From UHGV virus genome UHGV-1592266: 17,097 nucleotides of DNA. One strand, 5' to 3'. The DNA comes from a virus. Of the stretch, positions 4,659-13,141 are shown piece by piece (the stretch's first letter is position 1; each line of letters opens with the position of its first letter). Below the pieces are notes generated by a model, which had not been told where the DNA came from, searched no databases, and was given only the letters and a program-made list of their open reading frames with translations. Position numbers and translations under genes: made by a program.

Positions 4659-4829
4659 TCAGAATGGACATTCCCCAAGGAAATAACGCTGATTTAATAC
4701 TTCGACTCGGGACAAATTAAGGCATACCCGCATTCCTTCGCGGTCGCCATTATGGCGATACCAGAGAGCTTTCTGCGTGTACATGCGTCTCTGTAACTTG
4801 CTCTCCTTCACTGTGGTTGCAAGTGACAT
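4659..4829 (-). CDS. Small protein immediately upstream of erf (Arf-like position, 56 aa)
   Basis: ATG at 4829 is preceded by a strong SD (GAAGGAGAT). Frame MSLATTVKESKLQRRMYTQKALWYRHNGDREGMRVCLNLSRVEVLNQRYFLGECPF ends 11 nt before the erf start. Confidence 0.4.
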   Translation of the reverse strand: MSLATTVKESKLQRRMYTQKALWYRHNGDREGMRVCLNLSRVEVLNQRYFLGECPF

Positions 4830-4908
4830 GAATATCTCCTTCGTTACCGATTAATTCTTTCATCTGACGAATGAATTCTTCGTCTGACCAGTTATCTGTA
4901 AAACTCAT
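4750..4908 (-). CDS. Small acidic hypothetical protein (52 aa)
   Basis: ATG overlaps the Kil-like stop (ATGA). Frame MSFTDNWSDEEFIRQMKELIGNEGDIHVTC... Its 3' part overlaps the next ORF in another frame, so one of the two may not be a real gene. Confidence 0.3.
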   Translation of the reverse strand: MSFTDNWSDEEFIRQMKELIGNEGDIHVTCNHSEGEQVTETHVHAESSLVSP

Positions 4909-5057
4909 TTCCTGCGATACCACGGAAGGTTGATAGCTGATTTCATCGCTTTATTTGCTTCAAGCCACATTTTTGAATCACCAATAAATCTGGCTATTAC
5001 TGCTTTGTTCTGTGCAGCACGAAGCATCTGGTGATTGATGGCTATTTCATTGCGCAT
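4905..5057 (-). CDS. kil: Kil-like host-killing / FtsZ-inhibitor peptide (50 aa)
   Basis: Lies immediately downstream of cIII, overlapping it as kil does in lambda. The motif KAVIARFIGDSKMWLEA resembles my recollection of lambda Kil (..IATFIGDEKMF..). Identification is from memory only. Confidence 0.4.
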   Translation of the reverse strand: MRNEIAINHQMLRAAQNKAVIARFIGDSKMWLEANKAMKSAINLPWYRRK

Positions 5058-5173
5058 AATAAGACCTCAACTCTTTTCCATCCGTCACGTAATTTACGGG
5101 TGATTCGTTCAAGTAAAGATTCATTTAATTGGAAGGCACCCATGCGAGCGCCTCCCGCGATTGCGTAAATCAT
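5042..5173 (-). CDS. cIII: cIII-like protein (inhibitor of FtsH-mediated cII degradation)
   Basis: MIYAIAGGARMGAFQLNESLLERITRKLRDGWKRVEV... contains the lambda cIII core ESLLERITRKLRDGWKR. ATG is preceded by AAGGA. Confidence 0.75.
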   Translation of the reverse strand: MIYAIAGGARMGAFQLNESLLERITRKLRDGWKRVEVLLCAMK

Positions 5174-5197
5174 GGGTGGTTCCTTATGTTGGTTTTA

Positions 5198-6166
5198 TTA
5201 GTAGGTTATTTTTGTTGCGAATACTTCGCCTTTTACGATGGCTGTTATGATATTTTTAGCAACATCTTCTGATGCACCAACCTTGATAAGGTCAGCAAGT
5301 ATTTTGTTATTTACTTCTTTCCGGTGAGCTTTATCCTTTGCTCTACGCTCTTCTTCGTCCTTGATTCTTTTTTCTTCTGCTATTCTGGCTTGCTCTTTTG
5401 CTTCAGCCTCGCGCCGGATTCGTTCAGCCTCCTCCTGTGCTTTTCGGCGTTCTGCTTCAATTGCCGCCTGCTTTTCTCTTTCAGCTCGTTCTGCTGCCTC
5501 TTTTGCTTCGCGCTGTGCTCGTTGCTCGGCTTCAATGCGTTCACGCTCTGCACGTTCCGCTGCGGCCTTAGCTTCTGCTTCTCGCCTTGCTGCTGCTTCA
5601 ATTTCGGCTTTTGCCTTTGCTTCGGCTTCTGCTCTGGCTTTCTCTTCAGCTTCTCTTTTTAAGCGTTCTTCATGCTCTCGCTTTTCCTGCTCCGCTTTGA
5701 GTCTTGCCTCTTCTCTTTGGCGGTCAAATTCGCGATCCATCAAAATAGCTATTTCATGGTCAGACTCAATTTGCTTTGCGAGAGCTTCAGCTGCTGCCTT
5801 AGCTTCTTCTTCGGCTTTAATCCGCGCCTGTTCTTCCTCATAATCAGTAAGAGGCTGGCGCGCCTTGGCTTTCAGCTCATCAAGGCGATCACGCACTGTC
5901 TTGCGGTTGGCATCAATTAGCTTTGGAATTTCCTTCAGTTCAGCAACAAGGTCTTTGCCAAGACCATCGAGATATGTTTTCGTCTGCGCAACTTTATACG
6001 CCAGAGAAGCGATCTCCTTTCTGCCCTTTGCCGTTGTGATATCAGGCACAAAGGACATAACTTCACGTTCAACCTTTTGAAGGATTTCTTCAATCTGGTC
6101 GGCAGACTGAAATACAGTCATTGCATTTGCTTTTTCAATAACAACTAAATCTGTTACTTCACTCAT
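5198..6166 (-). CDS. Coiled-coil phage protein with a long Ala/Glu/Arg/Lys-rich central region (322 aa)
   Basis: Start placed at MSEVTDLVVIEK..., preceded by GGAGG. The central ~150 aa are low-complexity (AEAKAKAEIEAAARREAEAKAAAERAERERIEAEQRAQREAKE). Family not recognised with confidence. Confidence 0.6.
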   Translation of the reverse strand: MSEVTDLVVIEKANAMTVFQSADQIEEILQKVEREVMSFVPDITTAKGRKEIASLAYKVAQTKTYLDGLGKDLVAELKEIPKLIDANRKTVRDRLDELKAKARQPLTDYEEEQARIKAEEEAKAAAEALAKQIESDHEIAILMDREFDRQREEARLKAEQEKREHEERLKREAEEKARAEAEAKAKAEIEAAARREAEAKAAAERAERERIEAEQRAQREAKEAAERAEREKQAAIEAERRKAQEEAERIRREAEAKEQARIAEEKRIKDEEERRAKDKAHRKEVNNKILADLIKVGASEDVAKNIITAIVKGEVFATKITY

Positions 6167-8986: not shown

Positions 8987-10339
<1,353 letters not shown>

Positions 10340-10458: not shown

Positions 10459-10737
10459 ATGCAACTTACAAGTACTCGCAAGAAAGCGAATGCAATTACA
10501 AGCAACATCCTGAATCGAATTGCTGTACGTGGTCAGCGAAAGGTTGCCGACGCGTTAGGGATTAATGAATCGCAAATTTCGCGATGGAAAGATAGCTTCA
10601 TCCCCAAAATGGGAATGCTTCTGGCTGTTCTTGAATGGGGTGTTGAAGACGAGGAGTTGGCGGAACTGGCTAAGAAAGTAGCCAGAATGCTGACAAAAGA
10701 AAAAGCCCCGAAGAACGGCGAATTCTTCGAGGCCTGA
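10459..10737 (+). CDS. cII: cII transcriptional activator (lambda-like)
   Basis: Start placed at MQLTSTRKKANAITSNILNRIAVRGQRKVADALGINESQISRWKDSFIPKMGMLLAVLEWGV..., similar to lambda cII (..SQISRWKRDWIPKFSMLLAVLEWGV..). ATG is preceded by AAGGA. Confidence 0.85.
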   Translation: MQLTSTRKKANAITSNILNRIAVRGQRKVADALGINESQISRWKDSFIPKMGMLLAVLEWGVEDEELAELAKKVARMLTKEKAPKNGEFFEA

Positions 10738-10771
10738 TGTAGAAAGACTGGATCAATCCACAGGAGTAATT

Positions 10772-11416
10772 ATGACATACGAAAATGACAAATTCCAGGT
10801 TCTGAAGAGCATGAAGGTGCCAGATGATTTTAAATCAAATGGCTTTGTTTATGTGCTTTCTAATGAGTGCATGCCAGGAATTTATAAGATTGGGATGACT
10901 AAGCATTCACCAGAAGTTAGGGCTAAAGAAATTTCAGCCTCTACTGGCGTTCCTAAGCCATTTAAGGTGATAGCAGCCTTTCATTCAAATAATCCCGCAT
11001 CAGATGAAAAACTCATGCATAAAGCCTTTGCAAAAGAGAGGCTTAGTGATAATCGAGAGTTTTTCAAGCTTGAAGATAATGAGCTTTCTGAATCTCTAAA
11101 TGAAATAAGGGCGCTGGTTGGCCCTGAAAGAAATGGCGAGACGGCAGAATACGCAATTTACGACTCATTCATTTCTTTTCGCCATGAAAATGAGCTTGAT
11201 CTTAATGAGGAGCTTATAGAGCAAGGTCTGGGTAGTGTAGTTGGTCATCTTCCTGCGGTGAAAAATTTCCTTATTCGCGCCGGAATTGATTACGCGAAGC
11301 AACTGATAAGCAAATATAACTCATCGATAGTTATTAATACAGATGGCAGTGTGGTGATGGTTAAGTCTCTTGAAGCCCAATGCTTTGATGCGGAGGTTGG
11401 AAATGAGCCTGGCTGA
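10772..11416 (+). CDS. T5orf172-domain (GIY-YIG-like) protein inserted between cII and O
   Basis: N-terminal GFVYVLSNECMPGIYKIGMTKHSPEVRAKEIS...PFKVIAAFHSNNPASDEKLMHKAFAKERLSDNREFFKL fits the T5orf172 pattern (VYVL.N...KIG.T...R..E.....P.F.V......E..LH..F...R...EFF). AT-rich relative to flanks. ATG is preceded by AGGAG. The 3' end overlaps the O start by 14 nt. Confidence 0.6.
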   Translation: MTYENDKFQVLKSMKVPDDFKSNGFVYVLSNECMPGIYKIGMTKHSPEVRAKEISASTGVPKPFKVIAAFHSNNPASDEKLMHKAFAKERLSDNREFFKLEDNELSESLNEIRALVGPERNGETAEYAIYDSFISFRHENELDLNEELIEQGLGSVVGHLPAVKNFLIRAGIDYAKQLISKYNSSIVINTDGSVVMVKSLEAQCFDAEVGNEPG

Positions 11417-12245
11417 AGTATTTTACCTGTCGAAGAGTGAACCTGTTGAACAGGAGCGAAGAGTGGCTGATATCGATGATGGTTACACCAGATTCGCTAA
11501 CGAGCTGCTGGAAGCTATCGCAAGTGCTGATTTAACCGCTCGCCAGTTGAAAGTTATGCTGGCCTACGTCCGGAAAACATATGGATTCAATAAGAAAACA
11601 GATCGAATAGCCGATGAGCAAATTGCTCAGTTAACAGGACTGTCAAGGCAGAATGTTAACAAGGCTAAAAAAGAACTGATTTCAATGAATTGCCTGTTTA
11701 TGGATGGAAATCAAATCGGTGTAAACAGTGAGGTATCTGCGTGGCAATTCAGCAAGTGTCTCCAAGTTAGCAACTTTGTCTCGAAGTTAGAGACAAAAAA
11801 TGTCTCCAAATTAGAGACACTCAATGTCTCGAAGTTAGAGACACACAAAAGACATTCTTTAAAGACAAAAGAAAATATTAATAAACCCCCTATATCCCCC
11901 AAAAAAGTTTCTCAGAAGTTCGACCCGCTAGAAACAGAGTTGCCTGATTGGTTATCAGCAGAAACATGGTTGTCGTGGGTTACCTATCGCAAGGAGATAG
12001 GTAAGTCGATCAAGTCTAAGCAAAGTGTCACTCAGGCTATCAACGTTCTAAGCAGAAGTCTGGAGAAGGGATATACACCTGAAGAAATTATAAACCAGAG
12101 CATCGCCAGTGGTTGGCAGGGGATTTTTGAACCCAAGACTCCAAAGGGGAAATCTCAACCGAGGCCGCAGCAGCGAGCTATGCAGGAAAACTTTGCCGCC
12201 AAAGATTACGGGCAAACTGAAATGCCTTCATGGGCGCAGGAGTGA
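11403..12245 (+). CDS. O: Replication initiator O (lambda O-like, iteron-binding)
   Basis: Start placed at MSLAEVFYL..., preceded by GGAGG. The segment ERRVADIDDGYTRFANELLEAIASADLTARQLKVMLAYVRKTYGFNKKTDRI parallels the lambda O N-terminal domain. The ori iterons lie inside the gene. Confidence 0.8.
   Translation: MSLAEVFYLSKSEPVEQERRVADIDDGYTRFANELLEAIASADLTARQLKVMLAYVRKTYGFNKKTDRIADEQIAQLTGLSRQNVNKAKKELISMNCLFMDGNQIGVNSEVSAWQFSKCLQVSNFVSKLETKNVSKLETLNVSKLETHKRHSLKTKENINKPPISPKKVSQKFDPLETELPDWLSAETWLSWVTYRKEIGKSIKSKQSVTQAINVLSRSLEKGYTPEEIINQSIASGWQGIFEPKTPKGKSQPRPQQRAMQENFAAKDYGQTEMPSWAQE
11757..11843. repeat. Replication-origin iterons: four ~19-bp repeats followed by an AT-rich tract
   Basis: tgtctccaagttagcaact, tgtctcgaagttagagaca, tgtctccaaattagagaca and tgtctcgaagttagagaca begin at 11757, 11777, 11801 and 11825. 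Each carries an internal TCTC/GAGA dyad. The tract 11844..11910 is AT-rich. Confidence 0.75.
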
Positions 12246-12247
12246 AT

Positions 12248-13141
12248 ATGAATACGACAAATGGTTACAATCTGGCACTGCAAAGGCAACTTGTAGACTC
12301 AAAAATCAATGACATTTCTGATCTGAAACAGAAACTTGAGTTTAGCAAAATTGGATCAGCATCAGATGGAATGTCAGTTACCAGCACAGTGGAAGAGTGC
12401 GAGAAACACGGTAAATATACTTCCTATGAGAAATATCTGACCATCTCAGGAAAAAGAATTACTTCAAGTAAATCTGAGTGCCCACAGTGCCTTGAGGAGA
12501 AAATTCGTAAGAAAGAGATTGAACGTGAGCAGGCAGAACAAAGAGCAAGACAATCAAAAATTGAATATTTGTTGAATTCTCTCAATATTCCAGAGAGGTT
12601 CAAAAATTGCACTCTTCAGAATTATGAGCCTGTTAACGATGATGCAAAGCGAGTTCTTAAGGTATGCCAGGCATATGCCAGTAAGTGGCCTGAACGCCTT
12701 CAGAAAGGTGGCGGACTGGTCATGTGTGGTAAGCCTGGAACTGGAAAGAACCACCTTGCACTGGCTATCGCTAGGCACGCCATTATCGAGCATCAAAGCT
12801 CTGTGATATTTACCACTGCGTTGAAAATTGCCAGAGAGTACAAATCAACATGGTCTAAGGCCGCAACCAGAACTGAAGAAGAAGTCATTAGGCAATTTAC
12901 GCATCCTGACTTGTTAATAATCGATGAGGTTGGCGTGCAGTTCGGCAGTGATGCTGAAAAGCTAATCATGTTCGAAATTATCAACACCAGATATGAATAC
13001 ATGAAGCCAACAATCCTGATTAGTAATCAGAGCAAAGATGAACTTTCGGCATTCATTGGTGAGCGTGTTATTGACAGGATGAATGATGGCGGCGGATGCA
13101 CCCTTGCGTTTACATGGGATAGTTACAGGAGCAGATCGTGA
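12248..13141 (+). CDS. DnaC/IstB-like AAA+ helicase loader occupying the position of lambda P
   Basis: Walker A GKPGTGKNHLA and Walker B LLIIDEVG. N-terminal Cys pairs CEKHGKY...CPQC. ATG at 12248 is preceded by AGGAG, 2 nt after the O stop. Confidence 0.75.
   Translation: MNTTNGYNLALQRQLVDSKINDISDLKQKLEFSKIGSASDGMSVTSTVEECEKHGKYTSYEKYLTISGKRITSSKSECPQCLEEKIRKKEIEREQAEQRARQSKIEYLLNSLNIPERFKNCTLQNYEPVNDDAKRVLKVCQAYASKWPERLQKGGGLVMCGKPGTGKNHLALAIARHAIIEHQSSVIFTTALKIAREYKSTWSKAATRTEEEVIRQFTHPDLLIIDEVGVQFGSDAEKLIMFEIINTRYEYMKPTILISNQSKDELSAFIGERVIDRMNDGGGCTLAFTWDSYRSRS

Follow-up and report, generated by a model that had tools for sequence, protein, structure and literature searches.

The locus

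The window (the whole stretch of 17,097 nucleotides that was analysed, from the virus genome UHGV-1592266) is the early region of a lambdoid phage or prophage, a P22/HK-like mosaic, and its top whole-window match is Escherichia phage CurroJimenez_Bas106 (hereafter Bas106), with 97.5% identity across 59% of the window. In phage lambda, cII and the replication initiator gene O are not separated by any protein gene. Here this gap is occupied, as a preliminary description had already noticed, by an open reading frame of 214 aa with a ribosome-binding site of its own (AGGAG, 10762-10766, 5 nt ahead of the ATG). The reading frame, its neighbours and the parts of its product are the following:

10459-10737, upstream of the nuclease gene: cII (Pfam Phage_CII, 1.8e-42)
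10703..10735, minus strand: oop-like antisense terminator hairpin that overlaps the 3′ end of cII (terminator scan; a stem of 14 pairs, then TTTCTTTTGT)
10772..11416, plus strand: gene for a protein with a T5orf172 domain and an orphan C-terminal domain (ORF with ATG start, 214 aa; Pfam)
10841..11107, plus strand: nuclease domain, residues 24-112, T5orf172/MUG113 class of the GIY-YIG superfamily (Pfam)
11108..11413, plus strand: acidic, family-private C-terminal domain (CTD), residues 113-214 (pI 4.56, net charge -8)
11403..12245, plus strand: replication initiator O (Pfam Phage_rep_O, 3.4e-36; PHROG 678, 1.6e-80)
11757..11848, no strand assigned: four origin iterons TGTCTC[CG]AA[GA]TTAGAGACA within O (direct repeats, 20-24 bp spacing)

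Since the ATG of O lies at 11403, the two reading frames overlap by 14 nt, which is the overlap given earlier, and the ribosome-binding site of O (GGAGG, 11392-11396) is situated within the nuclease ORF; O is translationally coupled to the nuclease gene. A gene for a DnaC-like loader is found 3′ of O. From the nuclease gene to the iterons further downstream the distance is about 350 bp, and some alleles contain one additional 24-bp unit. The sequence of the oop-like hairpin is identical in phages N7 and WEM25, in which the site is empty, and it is part of the context that is common to phages without the nuclease gene. In other lambdoids the same slot between cII and the replication genes holds small genes, e.g., gene 42 of Sf6 (a homolog of HK97 gp53) and orf63 of Salmonella phage S107.

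The protein is 99.5% identical to Bas106_0049, labelled hypothetical in Bas106, and is annotated in RefSeq as 'GIY-YIG nuclease family protein' in 19 E. coli genomes. It falls in PHROGs 8430 and 16524, both without an assigned function. The literature search, whose scope did not include the papers that mention Bas106, returned no paper describing the gene or its synteny.

Composition and expression

The gene was initially called AT-rich, and this holds in a mild form only. Its GC content is 40.6% (37.2% in the nuclease half), compared with 45.6% in the window, 46.6% in cII and 43.7% in O, its GC3 of 35.8% lies below the 46-47% of both these neighbours, and among 645-nt windows it takes the 6th percentile, so that a strong compositional anomaly can be set aside.

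The promoter scan yielded no promoter-like site upstream of the gene and no excess over shuffled sequence in the region overall, and the DNA upstream of the gene does not differ from that of the empty-site phages; on these grounds a promoter of its own for expression in the lysogen is rejected. An antisense promoter-like site lies at 11449-11420. A search of the region for structured RNA (Rfam) returned sub-threshold matches only. In the lambda paradigm the pR operon is on at infection or induction and is repressed in the lysogen. Since no promoter of its own was found, and since the upstream DNA is that of the empty phages, the gene must presumably, by analogy with lambda, be read from pR together with cII and O, being on at infection and after induction and repressed in the lysogen. 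The co-expression with replication genes that was proposed at the outset agrees with this operon position, and so does the remark that such expression is unusual for a prophage defence gene, because, no promoter of its own having been found, a classical role in lysogen defence is unlikely.

The nuclease domain

The N-terminal half of the protein had been assigned to T5orf172, in the GIY-YIG superfamily, from its pattern alone, with the proposal to search Pfam models and to look at the catalytic residues. The profile search bears the assignment out: T5orf172 (PF10544) matches residues 24-112 with 55.2 bits (1.1e-14; gathering cut-off 20 bits) over profile positions 1-100 of 101, and MUG113 (PF13455) matches residues 38-111 with 58.3 bits (1.2e-15; cut-off 22.3 bits). 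In an alignment of 28 relatives that are 83-33% identical to the protein, the residues G24, Y27, Y38, K39, G41, T43, R50, E53, H83, R95, E96, F97 and F98 are invariant, and thus the GIY-YIG catalytic positions (Y27, Y38, G41, R50 and E96, plus H83 and R95) are unchanged in all 28, down to 33% identity. The spacing of the catalytic residues (11, 12, 46) agrees with that of Y6, Y17, R27 and E75 in I-TevI; no counterpart of I-TevI N90 was identified in the nuclease domain. The predicted structure (pLDDT 87) has the GIY-YIG alpha/beta fold, with Slx1, I-TevI and UvrC as the nearest structures. By sequence, motifs and fold the protein is a member of the Pfam families T5orf172 and MUG113 and of the GIY-YIG superfamily, and it is predicted to be a catalytically competent endonuclease of the T5orf172 class.

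The C-terminal domain

The C-terminal half, left unassigned in the preliminary description, remains so on a much wider search. Even with the threshold relaxed to E<=10, no Pfam family is found in residues 113-214; they match no entry of BFVD at E<=0.001, and neither a fold nor a sequence relative in the PDB, and the domain modelled alone reaches a pLDDT of 77, with a core above 90. When its profile was compared with 1.84 billion representative proteins, just 14 clusters were obtained, 13 of which correspond to the same two-domain protein of about 215-245 aa, complete or as a fragment, the other one being a spurious acyl-carrier repeat protein. The CTD is thus an orphan domain private to this architecture. 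Acidity is shared by the whole family (pI 4.5-5.1).

Nothing in the protein resembles a known DNA-binding module: neither a CapR, DUF723 or DUF4397 zinc finger nor an HTH was detected, Pfam gives no RepA_N or Phage_rep_O domain, and in a profile-profile comparison (hhalign) the CTD is related to the adjacent O with a probability of 2%. The proteins of a sister clade end in ...PDFDDAPF, ...DDSDIPF or ...VDEPIPF, tails that presumably resemble the C-terminal tip of E. coli SSB, and a tail of this kind is absent from the protein of the window.

A cassette present or absent on one O allele

The comparison of cII-O junctions that had been suggested for defining the insertion boundaries was informative, since the gene is missing from sibling phages whose cII and O alleles are the same. 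Alignments with phage N7 and the E. coli genomes 401651, WEM25 and PE15 delimit the following elements:

10747..10777, plus strand: module-boundary sequence ACTGGATCAATCCACAGGAGTAATTATGACA, the left edge of the cassette, conserved, containing the ribosome-binding site and the start codon
10778..11447, plus strand: the cassette proper, 670 bp
11403..11447, plus strand: recoded 5′ end of O, 45 nt, MSLAEVFYLSKSEPV in place of the lambda-like MTNTAKILNFGRGNFA

Phages that carry the same O allele without the cassette have 42 bp (AATACAGCAAAAATACTCAACTTCGGCAGAGGTAACTTTGCC) where the cassette has 670 bp. On the left side, identity with the empty phages extends through the junction, the ribosome-binding site and ATGACA to 10777, and in the empty phages this shared ribosome-binding site and ATGACA start O itself; on the right side, identity restarts at GAACAGGAGC (11448), which is codon 16 of O. 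The N-terminus of O encoded by the recoded segment is different yet functionally equivalent. The 42-bp O 5′ end of the cassette-less phages also contains the -35 region of pO. The left edge coincides with the most conserved junction sequence, as Bas106, N7, Sf6 and E. coli prophages that differ in their cII (three alleles) all share ACTGGATCAATCCACAGGAGTAATTATGACA, with variation at one base alone (10768, A or C); in the annotation of Sf6 it is termed 'bsq5 boundary sequence'. The boundaries of the cassette are identical in all copies.

In a survey of 5426 complete E. coli genomes, the nuclease gene was found in 19, each time at full length. The body of O (11448-12245) is present at >=80% coverage and about 99% identity in 46 of these genomes, 19 with the nuclease gene and about 27 without it, and the recoded 5′ end of O occurs in precisely the 19 nuclease-bearing genomes. 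In the three gene-less genomes that were inspected (401651, WEM25 and PE15) and in phage N7, cII is directly followed by an O that is about 99% identical. Among 17 close copies from IMG/VR, 16 are full length and the remaining one ends at a contig edge; the block conserved in these copies and in Bas106 is always 10747-12251, i.e., the nuclease gene and O are co-inherited, whereas on the left side the close copies break off at 10328, 10442, 10615 or 10747, with another break at the end of O. One decayed copy is known (P0032), in which the remnant is fused in frame to O.

Filled and empty genomes are interleaved on the SNP haplotypes of the O body, with at least 6 changes of state on a neighbour-joining tree, and linkage of the cassette to sites in the O body is lost over about 100 bp; the one site that stays linked is 10 nt away from the junction. 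The gene is therefore inserted in the local sense, being present or absent on near-identical O alleles, and this sporadic occurrence at one precise site between conserved genes, in near-identical genomes, is the distribution expected of a free-standing homing endonuclease gene.

An old companion of replication initiators

On a wider scale the gene has a different aspect. Among 66 non-redundant loci encoding the two-domain protein, the downstream gene was readable in 62, and in all 62 it is a replication initiator; the synteny with an initiator holds for homologs down to 35% identity. The hosts of these loci include Escherichia, Klebsiella, Pectobacterium, Pantoea, Enterobacter, Mixta, Dryocola and others. 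The initiators are diverse: 23 are of the Phage_rep_O type and 2 more weakly so, 36 are a protein of about 287 aa without a Pfam match (followed by lambda P in the sole locus inspected, L010), and 2 have no Pfam match and an O-like N-terminus. The spacing between nuclease and initiator genes ranges from an overlap to 12 nt in 61 of the 62 loci. Full-length homologs with 46-64% identity lie between cII (or YdaT) and the initiator in Klebsiella aerogenes, Pectobacterium, Pantoea ananatis and Enterobacter, and T5orf172 genes whose C-terminal halves are weakly similar or different occupy the same place in Salmonella phage S107, Proteus phage Brookers and many proteobacterial prophage contigs. All homologs are located within phage early-right operons and none in a defence island.

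Against a relative of 70% identity, each of the two domains gives a dN/dS of 0.10, at a dS close to saturation, and the family is under strong purifying selection (dN/dS about 0.1). Because synteny is kept across the loci and dN/dS is this low, the gene is long established, functional and conserved in position, and no recent stray insertion. It is an optional first cistron of the replication module. The earlier view of the gene as an insertion is consequently right for the E. coli siblings with the empty site and wrong if a fresh arrival is meant, as the family is an old one, upstream of the initiator in every readable locus. It had also been held that conservation at this position together with ordinary GC content would speak against a selfish insertion; the half that concerns position is indeed found, while GC is modestly low. 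New, as far as the literature search goes, are the orphan CTD and the systematic coupling to replication initiators.

What may the nuclease do?

An early-expressed endonuclease cassette of the homing or marker-exclusion type is the reading preferred here, and it is held tentatively. The nuclease would be transcribed from pR after cII and made alongside the replication and recombination functions of the phage, in a cell that also holds a related cassette-less lambdoid genome, either a co-infecting phage or a resident prophage. It would cut in or near the cassette-less cII/O junction, i.e., the 42-bp O 5′ end, and recombinational repair from the cassette-bearing genome would then copy in the nuclease gene along with the recoded 45 nt of O, which in turn may protect the carrier from its own enzyme. 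T5orf172 is an established family of phage homing endonucleases that cluster beside essential genes (PMC10448857). In favour of homing are the clean presence/absence polymorphism, boundaries that are fixed at the most conserved junction, and the 45 nt of O beside the gene, which are perfectly linked to it and heavily diverged when the remaining O is about 99% identical, as would be expected if the target site of the carrier is recoded. The interleaving of filled and empty states on O haplotypes, with linkage that decays within about 100 bp, fits as well; as proof of homing it does not discriminate, being expected of any accessory gene in mosaic lambdoids. The low GC of the nuclease half (37%), a GC3 below that of the neighbours, the existence of the decayed copy P0032 and the probable early co-expression with recombination functions point in the same direction.

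Several observations fit homing less well. The protein has no recognisable sequence-specific DNA-binding module, and 87% of T5orf172 homing endonucleases carry CapR, DUF723 or DUF4397 zinc fingers (PMC10448857); a novel binding mode may be envisaged. The family is also acidic (pI 4.5-5.1), unlike typical homing endonucleases. There are, on the other hand, GIY-YIG restriction enzymes that achieve specificity without a separate binding domain. Furthermore, the place of the gene is kept beside at least 4 initiator types, non-homologous ones included, down to 35% identity, with a conserved overlap or abutment and dN/dS of about 0.1 in both domains, which looks more like an integrated gene of the module than a transient parasite, and the copies are intact in 19 of 19 cases in E. 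coli and 16 of 17 in IMG/VR. Homing-like spread, one of the two readings offered at first, remains in the lead, although an acidic protein in which no DNA-binding module is recognisable weakens it.

A second reading, possible and less likely, is that of a nuclease effector which belongs to the replication module and finds its target through contacts with proteins, the nuclease domain itself having little sequence specificity. The acidic CTD might dock on the initiator, on the helicase loader, or on proteins of the host replisome or those interacting with SSB, and the enzyme might cut forks of the host or of a competitor, satellites, plasmids, or, in a structure-specific, Slx1-like manner, replication intermediates of the phage itself. 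Such a role would suit a CTD that is acidic, family-private and constrained as strongly as the nuclease domain, and a gene that stands directly before the initiator gene of whatever type, often overlapping it. The CTD subfamily tracks the type of initiator, a correlation that linkage of adjacent genes could explain; the sister-clade tails are like the C-terminal tip of E. coli SSB, but the protein of the window has no such tail. The top structural matches are Slx1 structure-specific nucleases, and SNIPE/PD-lambda-1, with a T5orf172-type nuclease, provides a precedent for aiming by other domains (bioRxiv 10.1101/2025.11.03.685801). Against it, the gene is dispensable, as phage N7 and about 27 E. 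coli prophages use the same O allele and lack the nuclease. Production of a poorly specific nuclease in each infected cell would also be a danger where lysogeny is about to be established, and no partner has been found.

The idea may be widened, and then becomes unlikely as a whole, to the proposal that T5orf172 nucleases upstream of the initiator constitute a class of replication-module nucleases, widespread and so far undescribed, among the temperate phages of Proteobacteria, whose private CTDs (in one clade an SSB-tail mimic) plug into the replisome/SSB interactome, and which would cut rival or host forks or remodel their own intermediates instead of acting in sequence-specific homing.

It is improbable that the gene serves as an early lytic counter-measure, directed against host defence or satellites, that destroys nucleic acid of a host defence system or DNA of a satellite or competitor in the way the ICP1 nuclease Odn does. 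T5orf172 domains have repeatedly been recruited as anti-satellite weapons by phages (PMC10448857), and early expression and a sporadic, accessory-like distribution would be in keeping with this; Odn-type enzymes, however, borrow the DNA-binding domain of an initiator, and the CTD here is unlike O (hhalign 2%) or any known domain, nor was a target element identified. Very improbable is a defence or superinfection-exclusion nuclease that is encoded by the prophage, protects the lysogen and is a relative of PDC-S57. The N-terminal domain does match the PADLOC models of PDC-S57 (best 4.1e-29) and PD-Lambda-1 (3.5e-12), and the PDC-S57 profiles are of similar length (212-245 positions), but the matches are confined to the nuclease domain (residues 21-113; PDC-S57 profile positions 3-94), the gene sits in a repressed pR operon with no promoter-like site upstream, and its homologs all belong to early-right operons of phages, with none in a defence island. 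Of the nuclease effector proposed as the other initial reading, only a version that acts during lytic growth, and not in the lysogen, survives. Least credible is an inactive relic, whether a DNA-binding or regulatory protein or a mere ribosome-binding site and translational coupling device for O, for although the ribosome-binding site of O sits inside the gene and T5orf172 domains are said to have been first described, by Iyer and co-workers in 2002, as DNA-binding modules of viral regulators, none of the catalytic positions varies among the 28 relatives, which reach down to 33% identity, the protein as a whole has a dN/dS of about 0.1, and the empty phages translate O from the shared ribosome-binding site without any nuclease gene.

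Early-right operons of lambdoid phages are among the best-studied DNA, yet no role has been assigned to this optional nuclease gene, which lies at the most conserved module junction and is coupled to the replication initiator. If the preferred reading of homing or marker exclusion is true, exchange driven by a nuclease would take place at the classic lambdoid "boundary sequence" and would offer a mechanism for part of lambdoid mosaicism; if the nuclease is aimed by protein contacts, the CTD would be a new adaptor domain in the GIY-YIG toolkit, linking phage nucleases to the replisome. The gene is carried by Bas106, a cultured phage of the BASEL collection, which makes the readings directly testable.

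Comparison with known systems

The closest parallel in distribution is provided by the free-standing T5orf172 homing endonucleases of ICP1 and other phages (Barth, Dunham and Seed, 2023; PMC10448857). They have the same Pfam nuclease domain, and in both cases a free-standing gene lies beside an essential gene (here one of replication), sporadically, at a fixed site and at a boundary of genetic exchange. Theirs nearly always have a DNA-binding domain, be it a zinc finger of the CapR, DUF723 or DUF4397 type or some other one, and were described mostly in lytic phages, whereas here an acidic orphan CTD, temperate lambdoid phages and synteny with the initiator across deep divergence are found. In its distribution the gene therefore behaves as homing genes do, and it lacks the recognisable DNA-binding domain by which they are otherwise known.

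Odn, the origin-directed nuclease of ICP1 (PMC8263062; PMC10448857), is likewise a T5orf172 nuclease tied to replication initiation and expressed in the lytic phase. For targeting, Odn uses a copy of the RepA_N domain of the satellite initiator, in contrast to the CTD here, which has no detectable relation to O, so that an Odn-type nuclease with an O-derived binding domain is ruled out. SNIPE/PD-lambda-1 has a related nuclease domain (PADLOC 3.5e-12), which is non-specific and aimed by the other domains of the protein (bioRxiv 10.1101/2025.11.03.685801). SNIPE, however, is found in bacteria, is anchored in the membrane and has about 490 aa; the protein of the window has neither its transmembrane segment nor its DUF4041, and membership is ruled out, as only profile positions 355-450 of 496, those of the nuclease, are matched and Pfam gives no DUF4041.

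PDC-S57, a candidate single-gene defence system of PADLOC on which the literature search found no publication, is of similar size with an N-terminal T5orf172 domain and gives the strongest profile match (4.1e-29). With the best model this match ends at profile position 94 of 212, the C-terminal halves differ, and the gene of the window is part of a phage pR operon, not of a defence island; it is not a member of PDC-S57. The T4 GIY-YIG homing endonucleases (I-TevI and the Seg proteins) bind DNA through a basic C-terminal domain that is attached by a linker, in contrast to the acidic and unrelated CTD described here, and the structure-specific GIY-YIG nucleases Slx1 and HIGLE are eukaryotic, have a RING or zinc domain and an Slx4 partner, and are 12-13% identical to the protein. 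Gene 42 of Sf6 and orf63 of S107 share with the nuclease gene the variable slot right after the conserved boundary sequence, and encode unrelated proteins of about 50 aa.

C-terminal tails of the nuclease family

The C-termini within the family of the window protein, the 214-aa T5orf172/GIY-YIG nuclease encoded between cII and O, are not uniform. Its sister clade (proteins of 230-245 aa) ends in GIYGPxxPxEF, and a part of this clade carries instead the C-terminal sequences PDFDDAPF, DDSDIPF or VDEPIPF. The sister-clade C-termini were read in the following relatives and compared loci:

Relatives P0031, P0035, P0039, P0040 and P0054
Loci L017, L070, L071 and L088

The C-terminal tip of E. coli SSB is DFDDDIPF, to which the three alternative endings bear a close likeness. 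Such tails may be a mimicry of the SSB tail, tying these nucleases to SSB-interacting proteins; the SSB-like tail is absent from the window protein.

Apparently decayed or possibly fused copies

A 41-kb ENA contig has a called protein of 202 aa, P0032, in which the C-terminal domain of the nuclease protein, reduced to its last ~65 residues, runs in frame into O (...EVGNRQLEVFYLPKSEPVEQERR...). P0032 appears to represent a cassette (nuclease gene plus recoded O 5' end) that has decayed or been frameshifted. The best PHROG match of the nuclease protein was phrog_8430 (1.5e-67), with residues 1-172 aligned to positions 275-439 of the 439-position profile. Since this match begins at profile position 275, some members of phrog_8430 may have ~270 additional N-terminal residues, or else may be mis-called fusions.

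Antisense signals and origin iterons

The minus strand of phages without the cassette shows a sequence readable as an oop RNA promoter, pO, of lambda type (TTGAGT, 17 nt, CATAAT); reverse-complemented, its predicted -10 gives the ATTATG found at the start codon. With the cassette in place, this -10 is retained and the -35 region is swapped out. The elements in the window are:

10703-10735, minus strand: strong oop-like intrinsic terminator (14-pair stem and T tract), antisense to the cII 3' end
10769-10812, minus strand: place of the predicted pO promoter of cassette-less phages, of which the -10 is kept here
11420-11449, minus strand: promoter-like site TCAACA-18-TAAAAT in the recoded O 5' end
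11757-11848: within O, four iterons of the origin with the sequence TGTCTC[CG]AA[GA]TTAGAGACA, every unit an inverted repeat

The terminator is conserved in both cassette-bearing and cassette-less phages. The promoter-like site lies in the recoded O 5' end at the equivalent of the pO place; a transcript started there would be antisense to the nuclease gene and enter it from its 3' end. The iterons code for the peptide repeat VSKLET, and one additional 24-bp unit, found in the O alleles of loci L124, L040 and L037, is seen in filled (cassette-bearing) and empty genomes alike.

An ORF in the immunity region

8987-9463, minus strand: 158-aa ORF directly downstream of the cI-like repressor, overlapping the repressor 3' end

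This ORF contains an internal 20-residue signal-peptide-like stretch and could encode a secreted or lipoprotein moron of the immunity region. It gave no Pfam match, and its stretch has no match in Escherichia phage CurroJimenez_Bas106, the best overall match of the window.

Nuclease genes in the same slot and in another variable slot

The empty-site prophage of E. coli 401651 has a different nuclease gene in the nin region immediately ahead of ninB, a further slot of this module whose content varies. Further lambdoid or P22-like phages contain ~200-aa T5orf172 genes in the same slot as the window gene, preceding different replication proteins. The loci of both kinds are:

L113 (E. coli 401651 prophage), 4821-5408: HNH endonuclease gene and its own partial duplicate
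L140 (Salmonella phage S107), 2356-3097: ~200-aa T5orf172 gene
L141 (Proteus phage Brookers), 2459-3067: ~200-aa T5orf172 gene

The similarity of the S107 and Brookers proteins to the C-terminal domain of the window protein is weak, and in S107 a small ORF additionally separates cII from the nuclease gene.
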